Assembly: GCA_902463315.1 (NCBI GenBank)
Contig: CABQFB010000001.1
Location: forward strand, 28,130 to 92,129
Direction of reading: 5' to 3'
DNA from: an uncultured Methanobrevibacter sp.
Lineage (GTDB): Archaea; Methanobacteriota; Methanobacteria; Methanobacteriales; Methanobacteriaceae
Length of the DNA stretch: 64,000 nt
Part shown: positions 37,605-47,370 of the stretch, piece by piece
Position numbering within the stretch: the stretch's first letter is position 1
How the letters are laid out: every line of letters begins with the position of its first letter
Notes under the pieces: generated by a model
Told to the model about the DNA's origin: nothing
Databases searched by the model: none
What the model saw: only the letters and a program-made list of their open reading frames with translations
Translations under genes and position numbers: made by a program

Positions 37605-37988
37605 TCACCTTAGTTCAATTTCCATTTGTGCTAAATATCCAATAAATGTTGTTATTAGTGGAATCATAATTAACATTGATATTATGTGTATTGGATAGTT
37701 CTCAATAATTGGGTTATGATTATTTATCAATTCTAAAAATAAAGCATCACATATTAAATCGATTATAAATAATATTATACCTAGCTTCAATCCTTCAATT
37801 ACTTCATTTGAGTCAAAATTTCTAATGTAGAGTACTGTTAAAATAGTTGTCACAATAATAATTGATAATGGAATAGTTATATCAATATAGGGTAAATCAT
37901 CAGTAATAAAATGATTTAATATAACTGTAATTAAATATATTAAACCCCATTCCAGTATTCCATAAGTTAGAGCTAGTTTAAGTTTCAT
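37605..37988 (-). CDS. Small polytopic membrane protein, hypothetical
   Basis: Four hydrophobic segments, 127 aa. Confidence 0.4.
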   Translation of the reverse strand: MKLKLALTYGILEWGLIYLITVILNHFITDDLPYIDITIPLSIIIVTTILTVLYIRNFDSNEVIEGLKLGIILFIIDLICDALFLELINNHNPIIENYPIHIISMLIMIPLITTFIGYLAQMEIELR

Positions 37989-38000
37989 TTCTCCAATCCT

Positions 38001-39374
38001 TTATGCATGTTTTATTTGAGTATAATTTGAGATTTCACTGTTAAATGTTGCAAGATCTTTAATATCCATTTCATGAATATCGTCATGACCAGTGATTCTT
38101 GCAAAAGTTTTTAAATCTTCAGTTGAAGACTTTAAGAAGTTATATAATCTTGCTGATCCATGATCTATTTTCAATCTTTCACGTAATTGTTTATTTTGTG
38201 TTGCAACTCCAACAGGACATTCTCCAGTATCGCATATACGGTATTGTTGACATGCAGTGGCAATAAGTGCTGCACTTCCAATAGCTATTCCATCAGCCCC
38301 CATAGCTAGTGCTTTTGCAAAATCGGAGGAAACTCTTAAACCACCAGTAATTATTAGTGAAACATCAGATGCATGTTCATCAAGGTATTTGCGAGCTCTG
38401 CTTAGGGCATATATTGTAGGGATAGATGTTGAATCTCTTACTAGCTTTGGGCTTGCTCCAGTTGCTCCTCCACGGCCATCAAAAGTAATAAAATCAGGGT
38501 CACTGTAAAGTGCAAATTCTAGATCATCTTCTATTCTCCCTGCAGCTATTTTTAAACCAATCGGACGACCATTTGATCTGTTTCTAAGTTCACTTACAAG
38601 CTCTTTTAAATCATCTTTTGTTTCAACTCCAGGAATATTAGCTGGTGAATGAATATCTTCTCCTATAGGTTTTCCACGAACGTCAGCTATTTCCTTTGTA
38701 ACTTTAGATCCTTGTAATTGTCCACCAAGTCCTGGTTTAGTACCTTGTCCTATTTTTATTTCAATAGCGCTTGACTTTTGAAGATTTTCATCAGTTACAC
38801 TATACTGGTTTGGAACATATTCGAAAATATATTTGTAGGAATTATTCAATTCTTCAGGTAGAATACCTCCTTCTCCACTGCACACTGCTGTTTTTGCCAT
38901 AGCTGTTCCTTTAGCTAATGCGATTTTAGTTTCTTTAGATAATGCACCATATGACATATGGGTTACATATATTGGTGTTTCAAGAACCATTGGTTTTTCA
39001 GCATTTTTCCCAATAACTGTTTGCGTATTAACCGGAACATCATTTTCTAATGGATGGGGATTTAATTGACAACCGAGAATAAGAATGTCATCCCAAGTAG
39101 GCATTTCCATCAATGTACACATAGAAGCAATTGGACTTTCACCTGTAACAGCTATCTCATGAATTGTGTTCATGTAACGTATATTGGAGTCTTTTCTTAG
39201 ATGGTCATAAGCTAAATCAGTAGAATTTTCTACAATTTCTTCTTCATCACTTTCTACTGGAACGAACTCTTCTACTGACTGTTTACATGTTGGGCAATGT
39301 TTTAAAGAATTAAGGGCAATACCCATTTCTTCTTCATCAATAATTCTTCCACATATCTTACATTTGTATTTCAT
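38001..39374 (-). CDS. Glutamate synthase large-subunit domain-2-like FMN protein with an N-terminal zinc ribbon
   Basis: CKICG...CPTC N-terminus. The central region matches the GltB FMN/Fe-S domain (GEGG...; ...GGTGA... the amino-acid motif in DGRGGATGAS; C-terminal cysteines). Confidence 0.75.
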   Translation of the reverse strand: MKYKCKICGRIIDEEEMGIALNSLKHCPTCKQSVEEFVPVESDEEEIVENSTDLAYDHLRKDSNIRYMNTIHEIAVTGESPIASMCTLMEMPTWDDILILGCQLNPHPLENDVPVNTQTVIGKNAEKPMVLETPIYVTHMSYGALSKETKIALAKGTAMAKTAVCSGEGGILPEELNNSYKYIFEYVPNQYSVTDENLQKSSAIEIKIGQGTKPGLGGQLQGSKVTKEIADVRGKPIGEDIHSPANIPGVETKDDLKELVSELRNRSNGRPIGLKIAAGRIEDDLEFALYSDPDFITFDGRGGATGASPKLVRDSTSIPTIYALSRARKYLDEHASDVSLIITGGLRVSSDFAKALAMGADGIAIGSAALIATACQQYRICDTGECPVGVATQNKQLRERLKIDHGSARLYNFLKSSTEDLKTFARITGHDDIHEMDIKDLATFNSEISNYTQIKHA

Positions 39375-43684: not shown

Positions 43685-44512
43685 ATGAAAGTATTTGTTC
43701 TAGTTGAAAATAATGCAAATGATATATTTAAAGGAGAACATGGTTTAAGCTTTTTTATTGAATATAACGGAAAAACTTACATAATTGACAGCGGAAAAAC
43801 TGGAATCTTTTTAGAAAATGCCCTTAAATTAGGTGTTGATTTATCCAATGTGGATGCTGCTTTTTTATCTCATGGCCATTATGATCATTCAGATGGTTTT
43901 GAAGAGCTATTTAAAATAAATAAGGATATTAATGTTTATCTTCAGGAAAATTCCGAAGGAAAAGAATATTATTCTTCAAAAAAGTATATCGGTATTTCTA
44001 AAAGCCTTTTAAGAGATTATTGTAATAGATTTATTTATGTTGATGGGTTTAAAGAAGTTGATTCTGGTGTTTATATCTGTCCACATACGACTGATGGTTT
44101 AAGTAAAAGAGGAGACCATGCTCAACTTTATTTCCTTTGCAATGGTGAAAAAGTTCCAGATGACTTTTCTCATGAACAGACAATAGTCTTTGAGGAGGGC
44201 AACAATTTGTTTTTATTCAATAGCTGTTCACATGGTGGTGTTGAAAATATTATAAATGAAATTAAAGAGATGTTTCCAGGAAAGGAGATTAAAGCATTTT
44301 TTGGAGGATTTCATTTAATGGGGAATGAGGGTGTTAATAGTTGCGGATTTTCACATTTGGAAGTTGAAAAATTAGGCAATTTTCTTTTAAAAAATACTGA
44401 TGCAAACTTTTATACAGGGCATTGCACAGGTAAAATTGCAGGGAAATGGTTAAAAAATATTTTAAAAGAAAGATTTGTTGAACTGCATTCTGGAATGGTT
44501 ATTGATTTATAG
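43685..44512 (+). CDS. Metallo-beta-lactamase fold hydrolase
   Basis: SHGHYDHSDG (the HxHxDH motif). Confidence 0.7.
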   Translation: MKVFVLVENNANDIFKGEHGLSFFIEYNGKTYIIDSGKTGIFLENALKLGVDLSNVDAAFLSHGHYDHSDGFEELFKINKDINVYLQENSEGKEYYSSKKYIGISKSLLRDYCNRFIYVDGFKEVDSGVYICPHTTDGLSKRGDHAQLYFLCNGEKVPDDFSHEQTIVFEEGNNLFLFNSCSHGGVENIINEIKEMFPGKEIKAFFGGFHLMGNEGVNSCGFSHLEVEKLGNFLLKNTDANFYTGHCTGKIAGKWLKNILKERFVELHSGMVIDL

Positions 44513-44731
44513 ATAAGATATATCTTTTTAGATAAACAATTTTATAATTAAAACGGCAATAGGTTGCCAACTTATTATTCTATTTTTAAAATTTTTGCAT
44601 AATATTTAATAAAATAGCTATTTTTCTATTATTTTTTAAACATTTAAAGAGTTTTGTTTAATAATTTAACATCATGTTTAGAAAACTTTAAATTAAATGG
44701 AAACTAAAAATACTTATAATAAGGTGAAAAT

Positions 44732-45820
44732 ATGAGTAGTAATAAAATAGCATTAGTCGGTACGCCTTGCCAGATATTAGCTGCAACCAAAATAAACAAA
44801 TATGAAGATTATACTGGTGGATCTGACATTGATTTTAAATTAGGATTATTCTGTATGGAAAATTTCTCATACTCTTATCTTGAAAAATTCTTAGAAGAAA
44901 AGGGAATTAAGCTATTTGAGGTTAAGGAATTTAGAATAGATAAGGGATACTTTATAGCTTACTTAATGGATGGTTCTACTTTTAAAATTCCAATAGCTGA
45001 AACAGAACTATTCACACGTAAAAACTGTCATATCTGCACTGATTTCACATCAGATGCGTCAGATGTTTCAGTAGGTTCAGTGGGAACACCTGAAGACCAT
45101 TCTACAGTTATTGTTAGAACACCAAAAGGGAAGCAGATTGTAGATGAAGCAATTAAAAATGGCTACATTAAAGCAGAGAAACTCGATGAGAAAGGAGAAA
45201 AAATTCTTAGAAATGTAGCAAATAAGAAAATAGCTAACAACACACAGACCATTAAAAAAAGAGAGGCAGTTGCAAGACCTGTTCTCTCAAAAAGACACAT
45301 GACTGATGAAGAAGTTAAACAAGAAGCACTTATTTGTCAATTTAAAAATCTTGAAAGTGATGTTATTAGTGTAGGGGCATGTGTACTTTGTGGTGCATGT
45401 GAATATGTCTGTCCAATTGAAGGAATTCAGATAAACCACAGAAAACCAGTTTTAACTAAAGAATGTGAAGAAGGCTGCCATGCATGTTACTTTGCATGTC
45501 CAAGAACATTTGTAAGTGAAGAGATATTTGACAAGGATATAGATAAAAAACCACTTGGAGATTATATTGAATTATTATCTGTTAAAGCGGAGTCAATTAT
45601 AGGTCAAGATGGTGGTGTAGTATCAGCTATTTTGATATATTTACTTGAACATGGTATTGTTGATGAAGTGTCAATTGTACGTGAAGACCAGGACGCTCCA
45701 TGGAGACCACAATCATTTTTAACATCAAGAGTACAGGATGTAGTATCAGCAGCTGGAACTAAATATAGTACAGTTCCCATAGGATTCAAATCATTATCAG
45801 ATAAAAATCATGCCAATTAA
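44732..45820 (+). CDS. Coenzyme F420 hydrogenase/dehydrogenase beta-subunit (FrhB/FdhB/FpoF) family protein with permuted domain order
   Basis: FrhB C-domain motifs come first (VGTPCQ, FCMENFSY, SDVSVGSVGTPEDHSTVIVRT). Two CxxCxxCxxxCP ferredoxin motifs follow. The FrhB N-domain motifs come last (GQDGGVVSAIL...AAGTKYS). Confidence 0.65.
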   Translation: MSSNKIALVGTPCQILAATKINKYEDYTGGSDIDFKLGLFCMENFSYSYLEKFLEEKGIKLFEVKEFRIDKGYFIAYLMDGSTFKIPIAETELFTRKNCHICTDFTSDASDVSVGSVGTPEDHSTVIVRTPKGKQIVDEAIKNGYIKAEKLDEKGEKILRNVANKKIANNTQTIKKREAVARPVLSKRHMTDEEVKQEALICQFKNLESDVISVGACVLCGACEYVCPIEGIQINHRKPVLTKECEEGCHACYFACPRTFVSEEIFDKDIDKKPLGDYIELLSVKAESIIGQDGGVVSAILIYLLEHGIVDEVSIVREDQDAPWRPQSFLTSRVQDVVSAAGTKYSTVPIGFKSLSDKNHAN

Positions 45821-46307
45821 GATAAAACAAGTGGAAAAGACTGAGGACTTAGAAGAAGTAGCTAATTTGGCTTATGAAATCTGGAACGAATCTTTTAAAG
45901 AGATAATATCCAAGAACCAAATTGACTATATGGTTGATAATTTTCAATCCTTAAAAGCTATGACAGAACAAGTAGAAAATGAAAACTACACTTACTTCAA
46001 GGTTTACTTCAAGAACAATTTATGCGGTTATATTGGTGTTAAAGATGAAAAAACCAAGTTATTTTTAAGTAAACTATATCTTAAAAAAGAATATAGGGGA
46101 AAAGGAATAGCTTCTGTAATGCTTGAAAAAGTATTTGAAGTGGCAAAAAAATTATCTAAAAAATCAGTATATTTAACTGTTAATAAGCATAATACTAATG
46201 CTATTAATGTTTACAAGGCCAAAGGTTTTGAAAAAATAGACAGTGTAGTTACGGATATTGGGGAAGGTTATGTTATGGATGATTACATTTTCCAATATTG
46301 TTTATAA
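45810..46307 (+). CDS. GNAT-family N-acetyltransferase
   Basis: Acetyl-CoA binding motif [11 protein letters not shown] and ...[11 protein letters not shown]. Confidence 0.75.
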
Positions 46308-46341
46308 AAGTTTAAACAAAAATTATATGAAGGTGATAAGT

Positions 46342-47370
46342 ATGGATTTAATGAAAGAACTTTCTCTAACACCAGGAATATCTGGTTTTGAGGAAAAAAT
46401 TGCAGATATTATTGAAAGAGAACTAAAAGACTCTGTTGACTCAATTGAAAAAGACAATATGGGAAATATAATAGCAACCAAAAAAGGTGAAAACAAAAAA
46501 GCACCTACAATAATGCTTGCTTCACACATGGACGAAATAGGTTTGATGGTAAGATACATTGATGATAAAGGATATATTAAATTTTCAAAAATTGGCGGTA
46601 TAAATGACCAAATGCTAATGAACCAAACTGTAGTAATCCATGCTGAAAATGGGGATCATGTTGGAGTAATAGGCTCAAAACCACCACATGTAACTAAACC
46701 AGCAGAGAGAAATAAGGTTGTACCATCTGAAGAAATGTTTATCGATATCGGTGCAAAAGATAAGGAAGATGCAGAATCAATGGTTCGTGTAGGAGATCCA
46801 ATAACCTTTAAATCATGGTATGAAGAGTTTCCTAATGACCTTATTATGGGAAAAGCATTAGATAACCGTGTAGGATGTTATGTAATGATGGAAGTTTTAA
46901 AAAGAGTAAATACAAGAGCTACTGTATACGGTGTAGGTACTGTTCAAGAAGAAGTAGGTCTTAAAGGAGCTAAAACATCATCTTACAGGTTAAACCCGGA
47001 TATGGCTATTGCATTAGATGTCACTTTATCAGGAGATCATCCTGGAATCAAACCAGATGAAGCACCTGCAGTAATTGGTGAAGGACCAGCTATTATCTTA
47101 ATTGATGCAAGCGGACGTGGAATAATCACTCAAAAATCAATTAAAGATATGTTAATTAAAGCGGGAGATGAAAAAGAAATCAAATACCAATTAGAGGTTA
47201 GTGATGGCGGAACAACTGACGGAACAGCTATTCACTTAACTCGTGAAGGAATTCCAACAGGTGTTCTTTCAGTTCCAACAAGATATATCCACACTACAGT
47301 AAGTGTCTGCAGTAAAAAAGATATTGAATCAACAATTGATTTAATTGTAGAGGCGATTAATAATTTATAA
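46342..47370 (+). CDS. M42-family aminopeptidase (TET/FrvX-like)
   Basis: HMDEIG..., GKALDNRVG and the overall length. The ATG at 46342 lies 5 nt after GGTGA. Confidence 0.75.

Follow-up and report, generated by a model that had tools for sequence, protein, structure and literature searches.

A gene in the 64,000-nucleotide stretch of Methanobrevibacter DNA analysed here (hereafter, the window) encodes a protein that our sequence comparisons identify as a genuine, ancient circular permutant of an FrhB-type F420/FAD/iron-sulfur protein. In this protein the C-domain comes first, a ferredoxin module second and the N-domain last (C-Fd-N). We consider it probable that this permuted module is the electron-input subunit (FGltS(II)-alpha, or subunit 4) of an archaeal glutamate synthase, and we found that its gene has left the glutamate synthase operon in gut and rumen Methanobrevibacter. 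Through this protein, F420H2 electrons are presumed to enter ammonium assimilation in the Methanobacteriales, which include the dominant methanogens of the human gut and the rumen. To our knowledge, nobody has yet purified or solved the F420-dependent glutamate synthase, so a clear account of the permuted subunit at its input should help those who attempt either. The permuted domain order also explains why automatic annotation gives the protein no fuller name than 'beta subunit C-terminal domain' protein.

The C-Fd-N order is ordinary for this lineage and already known. Since the permuted family was named in 2011-2012 and its swapped order was noted in 2013, the finding is correct but not new, and it does not overturn current understanding. 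The sequence-only reading of this DNA was made unaware of the published family and its swapped order.

Domain order and cofactor motifs

The gene is an intact ORF that opens with ATG, and its product is 100% identical to cluster P0001. Its parts are as follows.

44732..45820, + strand: complete permuted FrhB-family gene, 362 aa plus stop (ORF list)
44741..45271, + strand: FrhB C-domain (aa 4-180), with predicted [4Fe-4S] ligands C13/C41/C99/C102, the F420-pocket loop SVGSVG and a long terminal helix
45272..45340, + strand: connector from C-domain to ferredoxin (aa 181-203), created by the permutation (doubled-query alignments)
45341..45517, + strand: 2x[4Fe-4S] ferredoxin module (aa 204-262), with C217/220/223/227-P and C245/249/252/256-P (Fer4-family matches)
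45545..45787, + strand: FrhB N-domain (aa 272-352), with FAD motifs GQDGG (291-295) and GTKY (342-345), at the C-terminal end

A Pfam scan placed FrhB_FdhB_C (PF04432) at aa 4-153 (E 7.5e-47; model positions 2-149 of 150) and FrhB_FdhB_N (PF04422) at aa 291-350 (E 2.9e-19; model positions 15-73 of 78), with Fer4-type matches at aa 211-259 between them; the family HMM gives the N-domain a wider extent, aa 272-352. Each of the two domains exceeds its Pfam gathering threshold (159.4 bits against 23.3 for the C-domain, 69.4 against 22 for the N-domain), which assigns the protein to the FrhB/FdhB superfamily. The sequence-only reading had described the reversed order (C-domain, 2x[4Fe-4S], N-domain) in one intact 362-aa ORF and had suggested a domain scan to confirm it; the scan indeed recovers C, then Fer4, then N, and the N-domain model does not lie at the N-terminus. 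The FrhB-family motifs quoted there are likewise all present, with VGTPCQ at position 9, FCMENF at 40, SVGSVG at 113, GQDGG at 291 and AAGTKY at 340. Two details needed correction. Both iron-sulfur clusters had been written as CxxCxxCxxxCP, which holds for the first (C217/220/223/227-P), but the second (C245/249/252/256-P) is CxxxCxxCxxxCP. The ORF does not end right after AAGTKYS; it runs on for 16 residues and stops about 12 residues beyond the end of the N-domain model.

C13, C41, C99 and C102 are spaced 28/58/3, compared with 30/58/3 for Cys104/134/192/195 of FrhB, and Lys75-Tyr76 of the FrhB FAD loop correspond to K344-Y345. We take the roles of the FAD-site motifs and of the F420-pocket loop (SVGS; here S113-G118) from Mills et al. 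2013. Across 45 sequences at 48-89% identity, the 12 cluster cysteines, GQDGG and GTKY are invariant, and the loop S113-G118 is present together with the FAD motifs in invariant or nearly invariant form. This pattern points to purifying selection on the cofactor motifs. The permutant is predicted to keep the fold and the cofactor set of the family: a single FAD sandwiched between N-domain and C-domain, a [4Fe-4S] cluster in the C-domain and two further ones in the ferredoxin module.

Evidence for circular permutation

When the protein was aligned to unpermuted Fd-N-C relatives, a single copy of the query gave two alignments in swapped order, whereas the query joined to itself gave one co-linear alignment of 316-350 columns with each of seven relatives (P0125, P0128, P0132, P0136, P0143, P0144 and P0147). 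These alignments run from position 204 of the doubled query to 515-538, at 187-205 bits and E 1e-58 to 1e-64. One co-linear alignment on the doubled query, in place of two swapped ones on the single query, is what a formal circular permutation yields. The cut lies in the short linker that joins the N-domain to the C-domain. Both halves also match the same solved chains, 8riu_B and 8rja_E, in swapped order and with independent E-values of 3e-18 and 2e-26, which rules out chance.

The connector at aa 181-203 is missing from the unpermuted relatives, whose alignments to the doubled query begin at aa 203-204. It is modelled by AlphaFold at pLDDT 90-95, and an alignment of connectors showed a similar length and a weak common G-x-x-V motif in all permuted groups. 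The model as a whole is one compact, confident body (pLDDT 87.5, pTM 0.88), in which aa 153-179 form the long terminal helix of the C-domain. Its top Foldseek matches are FrhB, 8riu_B and 8rja_E; because Foldseek is a sequential aligner, only the C-domain half was aligned. For that half, the comparison with FrhB chains gave a close fit, with ~180 columns superposed at an rmsd of 1.5-2.1 A.

The architecture is not peculiar to the window. The conservation check that had been proposed from the sequence found it full-length in all of the best 120 clusters (120/120), and it occurs as a single intact ORF in 87/87 related loci scanned, from many genera. Among the 150 best 50%-identity representatives, 15 have the C-Fd-N order, which persists down to 27-38% identity, the lowest being 27%. 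The earlier suggestion of a functional circular permutant is thus supported by the doubled query, the conserved architecture, the invariant motifs and the compact AlphaFold model.

Comparison with solved and named relatives

The best solved relatives are chain B of 8RIU and chain E of 8RJA (E 6e-47 and 2e-46), from CODH/ACDS and Fwd complexes of Ca. Ethanoperedens. Like the window protein, they consist of three modules and carry FAD and three [4Fe-4S] clusters, two of them in the ferredoxin and the third in the FrhB part, and the ferredoxin and N-domain of the window protein align continuously to residues 11-162 of 8riu_B, which comprise its N-terminal ferredoxin plus N-domain. These chains are Fd-N-C, however, and their N-terminal ferredoxin anchors the subunit to its partner, whereas that of the window protein lies inside the chain and is tethered on either side. 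The two chains work with CODH and Fwd, not with glutamate synthase.

FrhB (PDB 4OMF/4CI0, 6QGR, 9R51) shares with the window protein the core fold, the [4Fe-4S] cysteines, the FAD loop and the F420 loop, with a C-domain rmsd of ~2 A, but it is N-C and lacks the ferredoxin module, one being provided by FrhG. The window protein scores 181.5 bits against the FrhB equivalog model TIGR03289, below its cut-off of 331.5, and no hydrogenase genes were found in the flanking 8 kb or among the annotated neighbours at 35.6-50.5 kb. FpoF/FqoF and Fsr-N are F420H2 dehydrogenase input units that likewise combine a ferredoxin with an FrhB module; they differ in being Fd-N-C and in having a membrane complex or a fused sulfite reductase as partner. 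Against the FpoF models the window protein reaches 134-140 bits, where the cut-offs are 444-475 (NCBIfam FpoF, 140 against 475).

A probable subunit of F420-dependent glutamate synthase

The window protein is 49% identical to MTBMA_c06440 (ADL58239) of M. marburgensis over 347 co-linear aa (E 3e-123, 3 gaps), and the two have the same Pfam order. The published name of MTH193/MTBMA_c06440 is FGltS(II)-alpha, 'subunit 4 of F420-dependent glutamate synthase'; the legend to Fig. 9 of Mills et al. (2013, eLife) states the swapped alignment of the M. marburgensis subunit 4 to FrhB. A literature search for papers that name circular permutation together with FrhB found none, and those that mention permutation in any form do not concern protein topology. 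FGltS(II)-alpha resembles the window protein in its C-Fd-N order, its length class and all of its cofactor motifs. The two differ in genomic setting: the FGltS(II)-alpha gene lies inside a GATase-GXGXG-x-Glu_synthase operon, whereas the window gene and its counterparts at ~30 gut and rumen Methanobrevibacter loci adjoin an M42 peptidase gene.

If the window protein works as its motifs suggest, F420H2, for which it is predicted to be specific, would pass a hydride to FAD, and electrons would leave singly through the three clusters to the partner enzyme. Judging from the orthologs, that partner would be a multi-subunit archaeal glutamate synthase with GATase, GXGXG and ferredoxin+FMN Glu_synthase subunits, and the putative reaction would be glutamine + 2-oxoglutarate + F420H2 -> 2 glutamate + F420. 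An F420-dependent glutamate synthase 'remains to be proven' according to Kaster et al., and it is still called 'putative' in a paper of July 2026.

Relocation of the gene in gut and rumen Methanobrevibacter

In Methanobacterium, Methanothermobacter and a probable Methanosphaera, the gene lies within a GATase-GXGXG-FrhB-like-Fd/FMN operon, which in M. marburgensis reads SNO-GATase-GXGXG-x-Fd/FMN. We found this context at 29 of the 80 GTDB loci and at the metagenome loci L001-L007, and likewise at L089-L091 and L096; at L089-L091, glnA is directly upstream. The window gene does not occupy this position between the GXGXG and Fd+FMN Glu_synthase genes. Around it lie MBL-fold, GNAT and M42 genes, and the 64-kb window has neither a GATase nor a GXGXG gene. 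In gut and rumen Methanobrevibacter, the window included, the gene sits between an EFR1-type ferredoxin gene and the M42 peptidase gene. Methanobrevibacter sp. DSM 116169 shows both ends of the move: its GATase-GXGXG-GluSyn cluster has a 14-nt spacer where other genomes hold the gene, and its permuted gene adjoins M42 ~275 kb away. Contig L092, which has been widely sampled, carries the same gapped cluster. The gene has moved out of the glutamate synthase operon in gut and rumen Methanobrevibacter, and in DSM 116169 and on contig L092 the operon persists without it.

One Glu_synthase-domain gene does lie in the window, at 38001-39374 on the - strand, 5.4 kb from the permuted gene. Its product is 36-40% identical to every operon partner and has a rubredoxin-like N-terminus instead of the ferredoxin domain; in other Methanobrevibacter loci the gene is distant from the permuted one. 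By these comparisons it is a paralog and not the cognate partner.

In a neighbor-joining (NJ) tree, the Methanobrevibacter-type copies of the permuted protein form a clade apart from the operon copies, and one MAG holds a member of each clade (L045 and L078). Because of this co-occurrence of separate clades, the two types may be paralogs.

Signals upstream of the window gene

The following elements precede the start codon.

44686-44693, + strand: archaeal TATA-like box CTTTAAAT, aligned to the CTTTAAATA/CTTTATATA element of related Methanobrevibacter loci
44699-44702, + strand: lone GGAA half-site 3' of the TATA-like box (box and half-site together, 44686..44702)
44722..44727, + strand: Shine-Dalgarno-like AGGTGA, 4 nt 5' of the ATG, read directly from the sequence

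Most related loci have a GAGGTG element ahead of the start codon, as the window does, and CTTTAAAT is a putative promoter element. In related Methanobrevibacter loci the CTTTAAATA/CTTTATATA element is followed by a complete NrpR-type operator, GGAA-N6-TTCC, of which the window keeps one half; the complete operator is absent from the window, and by this operator search the window gene falls outside the NrpR (nitrogen) regulon. About 15 rumen Methanobrevibacter loci carry a perfect GGAA-N6-TTCC 35-39 nt upstream of the relocated gene, with invariant half-sites and variable spacers. The same operator occurs in relatives upstream of glutamate synthase operons and of glnA.

Other possible electron acceptors

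The permuted module is not specific to glutamate synthase, given the varied redox neighbours of its distant relatives, which adjoin Nap-like, NosL and DHO_dh/Fer4 genes. It is conceivable, though we regard it as doubtful, that the C-Fd-N permutant arose once and is a portable F420-linked electron cassette, which archaea have joined to four or more kinds of acceptor. These would be glutamate synthase; a NapA/NapGH/NapD-type molybdoenzyme cluster with a multihaem cytochrome; a NapH-like/NosL cluster; and a DHO_dh+Fer4 flavoenzyme. Were this true, release from the operon in gut Methanobrevibacter would free a single copy to serve two or more acceptors.

Also unlikely, in our view, is that the relocated protein of gut and rumen Methanobrevibacter is no longer dedicated to glutamate synthase and has become a free-standing F420H2:ferredoxin (or flavodoxin) oxidoreductase with one or several other acceptors. 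The divergently encoded EFR1-type flavodoxin-like ferredoxin would be one candidate; an EFR1-family gene is the divergent upstream neighbour at 21 loci. The window gene also stands alone, preceded by a TATA-like box and a ribosome-binding site of its own, and lacks the nitrogen operator, and three other types of redox enzyme are found paired with distant permuted relatives. However, EFR1 adjacency is absent from deeper Methanobrevibacter branches that retain M42 adjacency, and so may be mere synteny. Methanobrevibacter also retains the cognate cluster for glutamate synthase, in which an exact gap marks the place of the gene in sister genera, and the DSM 116169 genome has no further copy of the permuted gene among the 80 best loci. 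Finally, the rumen relatives keep the NrpR-type operator ahead of the relocated gene. We therefore favor a glutamate synthase subunit encoded away from its operon.

Origin of the permuted order

The ancestor is best described as an FpoF-like Fd-N-C protein rather than as FrhB with an inserted ferredoxin, a point that the sequence-only reading had missed. The Fd-N-C order of FpoF, Fsr-N and the F420-reductase subunits of 8RIU/8RJA has been rotated to C-Fd-N, with a new connector of ~23 residues between what were the C-terminal helix and the N-terminal ferredoxin.

FdhB, of the F420-dependent formate dehydrogenase, belongs to the FrhB family, has two extra clusters like the window protein and is N-C-Fd. 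The superfamily thereby offers a clean natural example of a three-module ring in all three rotations (Fd-N-C, N-C-Fd and C-Fd-N). Since these are rotations of one ring, C-Fd-N could formally also have come from an FdhB-like N-C-Fd ancestor whose N-domain shifted to the C-terminus. Susanti & Mukhopadhyay (2012) termed FGltS(II)-alpha 'an FdhB homolog', ~300 columns of FdhB chains are co-linear with the window model in Foldseek, and the C-to-Fd junction is present in a relative, P0167. We nevertheless judge this ancestry improbable. FdhB chains match the window protein weakly and in the C-domain only (E 2e-14 to 6e-6), and the ~300-column superpositions, poor beyond that domain, have an rmsd of ~10 A; Fd-N-C chains reach E 6e-47, with the Fd-to-N junction inside one continuous aligned segment. 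Moreover, Fd-N-C accounts for 117 of the best 150 representatives, with identities of 32-42%, and N-C-Fd for none of them.

A recent local rearrangement, by which a tandem pair or gene fragments were fused into a non-functional product or an assembly artefact, has the unusual order itself as its sole support and is scarcely credible, being already refuted by the comparative data: the 120 best clusters and 87 loci of many genera share the architecture, each locus with a single unbroken ORF, no cofactor ligand varies, nothing of an N-domain is left in the 220-nt intergenic region upstream, the ORF opens at C-domain model position 2, and no ortholog has the two genes that the tandem-pair fusion proposed from the sequence would imply.

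For rotation from an Fd-N-C ancestor, duplication and truncation is a plausible ancient route. An Fd-N-C-Fd-N duplication intermediate was sought among the multi-stretch matches, and none was found: P0167 is Fd-N-C-polyferredoxin without a second N-domain, and P0157, P0179, P0248 and P0262 prove to have the usual Fd(n)-N-C order or to be an Fsr-type fusion. To count origins, the modules were aligned singly, concatenated in a common order and used to build an NJ tree with 200 bootstraps. The permuted proteins formed one bipartition in 0 of 200 replicates. Deep in the tree the branching is star-like, and the N-C proteins, too, are scattered, so this result is no evidence for multiple origins. 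The shared cut point, the similar connector length and the G-x-x-V motif lend weak support to a single origin of the permuted proteins.

Domain order and circular permutation of the window protein

The permuted gene begins with an ATG, preceded at 4 nt by an AGGTGA ribosome-binding site. A Pfam scan of its product bears out the order proposed in the sequence-only reading, in which the C-domain is followed by a ferredoxin module (Fd) and then the N-domain (C-Fd-N) within one 362-aa ORF:

44732-45820, + strand: permuted FrhB-family gene, intact ORF
Residues 4-153: FrhB_FdhB_C (E 7.5e-47)
Residues 211-259: Fer4-type matches, between the C- and N-domains
Residues 291-350: FrhB_FdhB_N (E 2.9e-19)

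Every motif cited in that reading was found in the protein, and the first of its two CxxCxxCxxxCP clusters is as described, but the second reads CxxxCxxCxxxCP, and the ORF runs for 16 further residues past AAGTKYS rather than ending there. The C-domain cysteines are spaced 28/58/3, as compared to 30/58/3 in FrhB (Cys104/134/192/195), and K344-Y345 is the counterpart of Lys75-Tyr76 in the FrhB FAD loop. NCBIfam models for FrhB, FpoF, and related proteins matched the window protein in two pieces, all far under cut-offs.

The solved structures most similar to the window protein are 8riu_B and 8rja_E, which come from the CODH/ACDS and Fwd complexes of Ca. Ethanoperedens and are their F420-reductase subunits (PMC11493965). 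Both carry the same three modules, but in Fd-N-C order: residues 206-349 of the window protein match 8riu_B 11-162, and residues 3-175 match 8riu_B 175-347. As a formal permutation test, we took seven unpermuted relatives found in the representative search and compared them with the window protein, both single and self-concatenated. Against the single protein, each relative gave two swapped HSPs. Against the self-concatenated protein, each of the seven alignments was a single co-linear HSP (316-350 columns, 187-205 bits, E 1e-58 to 1e-64), which starts at residue 203-204, crosses the C-terminus, and continues over residues 1 to about 150-176. The natural termini are located in the N-to-C interdomain linker, and the sole new connector is residues 181-203. 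An AlphaFold2 model based on a 45-sequence alignment is a single compact body (pLDDT 87.5, pTM 0.88), with the connector at pLDDT 90-95. The top Foldseek matches of this model were FrhB chains, 8riu_B, and 8rja_E, with superpositions of only about 180 columns (rmsd 1.5-2.1 Å, TMq about 0.45), as expected of a sequential aligner given a permutant. The window protein is almost certainly a true circular permutant. The doubled-query alignment, the model, and the conservation described below also support the suggestion that it is a functional one, with predicted cofactor binding.

Conservation and origin of the permuted order

The architecture is conserved in related genomes, being encoded by a single intact ORF in 87 of 87 loci scanned (L001-L087), nearly all of 339-396 aa. 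The best 120 clusters each covered 75-100% of the query (most 96-100%) at 48-100% identity, and the four C-domain cysteines, eight ferredoxin cysteines, GQDGG, and GTKY were invariant in 45 sequences. In an exhaustive search, 1.84 billion representatives yielded 2878 relatives. Among the best 150 of these, 117 were Fd-N-C, 15 C-Fd-N, and 9 N-C, with identities of C-Fd-N members as low as 27%; one distant permuted cluster was assigned to Ca. Methanofastidiosum. The intact ORFs, invariant cofactor motifs, and distant C-Fd-N members rule out a local accident at the window locus, and the C-Fd-N order is ancient and under selection.

The three orders Fd-N-C (FpoF type), N-C-Fd (FdhB type), and C-Fd-N are related by rotation around a single ring. 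We favor an Fd-N-C ancestor, which would have been cut in the N-C linker, because the sequence alignment is unbroken over the Fd-to-N junction and similarity to Fd-N-C proteins is much stronger. The permuted order may have a single origin or several: all permuted groups have the cut point, connector length, and a weak motif in common, and a joint tree of permuted and unpermuted members was star-like. No duplication intermediate was found among the relatives checked. One candidate, the 593-aa P0167, was rejected because it is Fd-N-C-polyFd, with ferredoxin modules flanking an FrhB core; its layout shows that a C-to-Fd junction also occurs outside the permuted family.

Probable relationship to F420-dependent glutamate synthase

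The permuted gene of Methanobacterium, Methanothermobacter, and related genomes lies inside a tight operon:

Optional first gene: SNO
Gene 1: GATase, 305 aa
Gene 2: GXGXG protein, 225-231 aa
Gene 3: permuted FrhB-like protein
Gene 4: ferredoxin+FMN Glu_synthase, about 500 aa

Of the 80 best GTDB loci, 29 have this operon, as do metagenome loci L001-L007 and M. marburgensis (CP001710.1). The permuted protein of M. marburgensis shares 49% identity with the window protein across 347 co-linear residues. Three loci (L089-L091; GC 30-31%), probably from Methanosphaera, have glnA immediately 5' of the operon. A SNO/PdxT-like glutaminase gene heads the glutamate synthase cluster in L088 (3807-7485), L092 (3802-7497), and L096 (751-5500). 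In Methanobrevibacter and Methanothermobacter it shares 13 nt with the GATase gene, and its co-transcription with the cluster is possible.

The family is already known. The M. marburgensis protein is the one (MTH193, MTBMA_c06440) that Kaster et al. (2011) named "subunit 4 of F420-dependent glutamate synthase", adding that this "remains to be proven", and Susanti and Mukhopadhyay (2012) named it FGltS(II)-alpha, an FdhB homolog whose primary sequence "departs significantly". In 2013, Mills et al. aligned FGltS(II)-alpha/subunit 4 to FrhB and noted the swapped order, so the permutation is already in print; in our literature search we found no paper using the term circular permutation for an FrhB-type protein. 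A July 2026 paper still calls F420-dependent glutamate synthase "putative". What is new here is modest: in Methanobrevibacter the gene has been relocated, in rumen species an operator precedes it, and the permuted form has a broader set of candidate partners.

On balance, we consider the window protein a likely glutamate synthase subunit. In the mechanism we propose, F420H2, the predicted donor, would pass a hydride to FAD bound between the N- and C-domains. Electrons would then move to the C-domain cluster, the two ferredoxin clusters, the ferredoxin domain of the Glu_synthase subunit (the putative partner in the window organism), and finally FMN, where 2-iminoglutarate made from glutaminase-derived ammonia would be reduced.

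Relocation in Methanobrevibacter

The gene lies outside the operon in about 30 Methanobrevibacter loci from gut and rumen, where an M42 peptidase gene is next 3', and in 21 loci a divergent EFR1-family ferredoxin gene lies 5' of it. Methanobrevibacter sp. DSM 116169, whose genome is complete, has an intact GATase-GXGXG-Glu_synthase cluster with a 14-nt spacer at the position of the FrhB-like gene in other genera; its permuted gene lies about 275 kb from the cluster, beside the M42 gene. The same cluster lacking the FrhB-like gene is found in a second, very widely sampled contig, and a termite Methanobrevibacter (L069) has the order GATase-GXGXG-Glu_synthase-FrhB-like. Together, the intact cluster and its spacer, the permuted gene elsewhere, and the L069 order show that the gene was relocated, not lost.

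In a rough NJ tree, Methanobrevibacter-type copies form a clade apart from the operon copies. Since both types are found in one MAG (FCS_M_Methanobacteriota_01), an old duplication of the permuted gene is possible. One copy (L078) is in a canonical operon, and the other (L045) is in a divergent GXGXG-like/FrhB-like/Glu_synthase-like cluster whose partners are only 36% and 58% identical, which suggests a paralogous second system. A locus filed under "Bacteroidaceae bacterium" (L024) has the typical Methanobrevibacter EFR1/FrhB-like/M42 layout and an FrhB-like protein 70% identical to that of the window; it is probably a binning contaminant.

The window itself encodes the following neighbors:

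37605-37988: hydrophobic ORF, 127 aa, following the Glu_synthase-domain gene
38001-39374, - strand: Glu_synthase (FMN) domain protein, 457 aa
42811-43578, - strand: EFR1-family protein, flavodoxin-like N-terminal part plus 2x[4Fe-4S]
43685-44512: MBL-fold gene
45810-46307, + strand: GNAT acetyltransferase gene, overlapping the FrhB-like gene 3' end by 11 nt
46258-47370, + strand: M42 peptidase ORF, TTG start at 46258, 370 aa as listed

The MBL-fold gene separates the EFR1 and FrhB-like genes in the window and L009, and a GNAT gene at the 3' end of the FrhB-like gene is limited to the window and to L008 and L009, its two closest relatives. The M42 ORF start is probably over-extended, given orthologs of about 341 aa and a Pfam domain that begins at residue 69. 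In the Glu_synthase-domain protein, an N-terminal rubredoxin-like CxxC...CxxC replaces the ferredoxin domain, and its 36-40% identity to every operon-type glutamate synthase subunit indicates a separate paralog.

NrpR-type operators

The NrpR operator sequence is GGAA-N6-TTCC (PMC4335013). About 15 loci of rumen Methanobrevibacter (L014:3775-3788, L019:9964-9977, and about 13 others) have a perfect copy 35-39 nt 5' of the relocated gene. It sits just 3' of a CTTTAAATA box, and between loci the spacers differ but the half-sites do not. The sequence also occurs about 650-720 nt 5' of the GATase gene, i.e. 5' of the leading SNO gene, in at least 20 operon loci, and twice 5' of glnA in L089-L091. 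The window keeps a TATA-like box (44686-44693) and a single GGAA half-site (within 44686-44702), and the complete operator is absent from the whole 64 kb. These predicted sites support a nitrogen-assimilation role of the relocated gene in close relatives, and not directly in the window.

Distant permuted members with other neighbors

Three distant C-Fd-N members, 33-34% identical to the window protein, have no adjacent glutamate synthase genes:

L093, 5001-6074: beside a NapH-like protein and three NosL genes
L094, 5001-6032: DHO_dh+Fer4 flavoenzyme 4 nt 3'; Ca. Methanofastidiosum-type genome
L095, 5001-6101: within a NapA-like molybdoenzyme/NapG-NapH-like/NapD cluster with a multihaem cytochrome

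On the evidence of these three neighborhoods, the permuted module may be a general electron cassette; we came across no published description of one. P-II and Amt genes are located near the L094 permuted gene.
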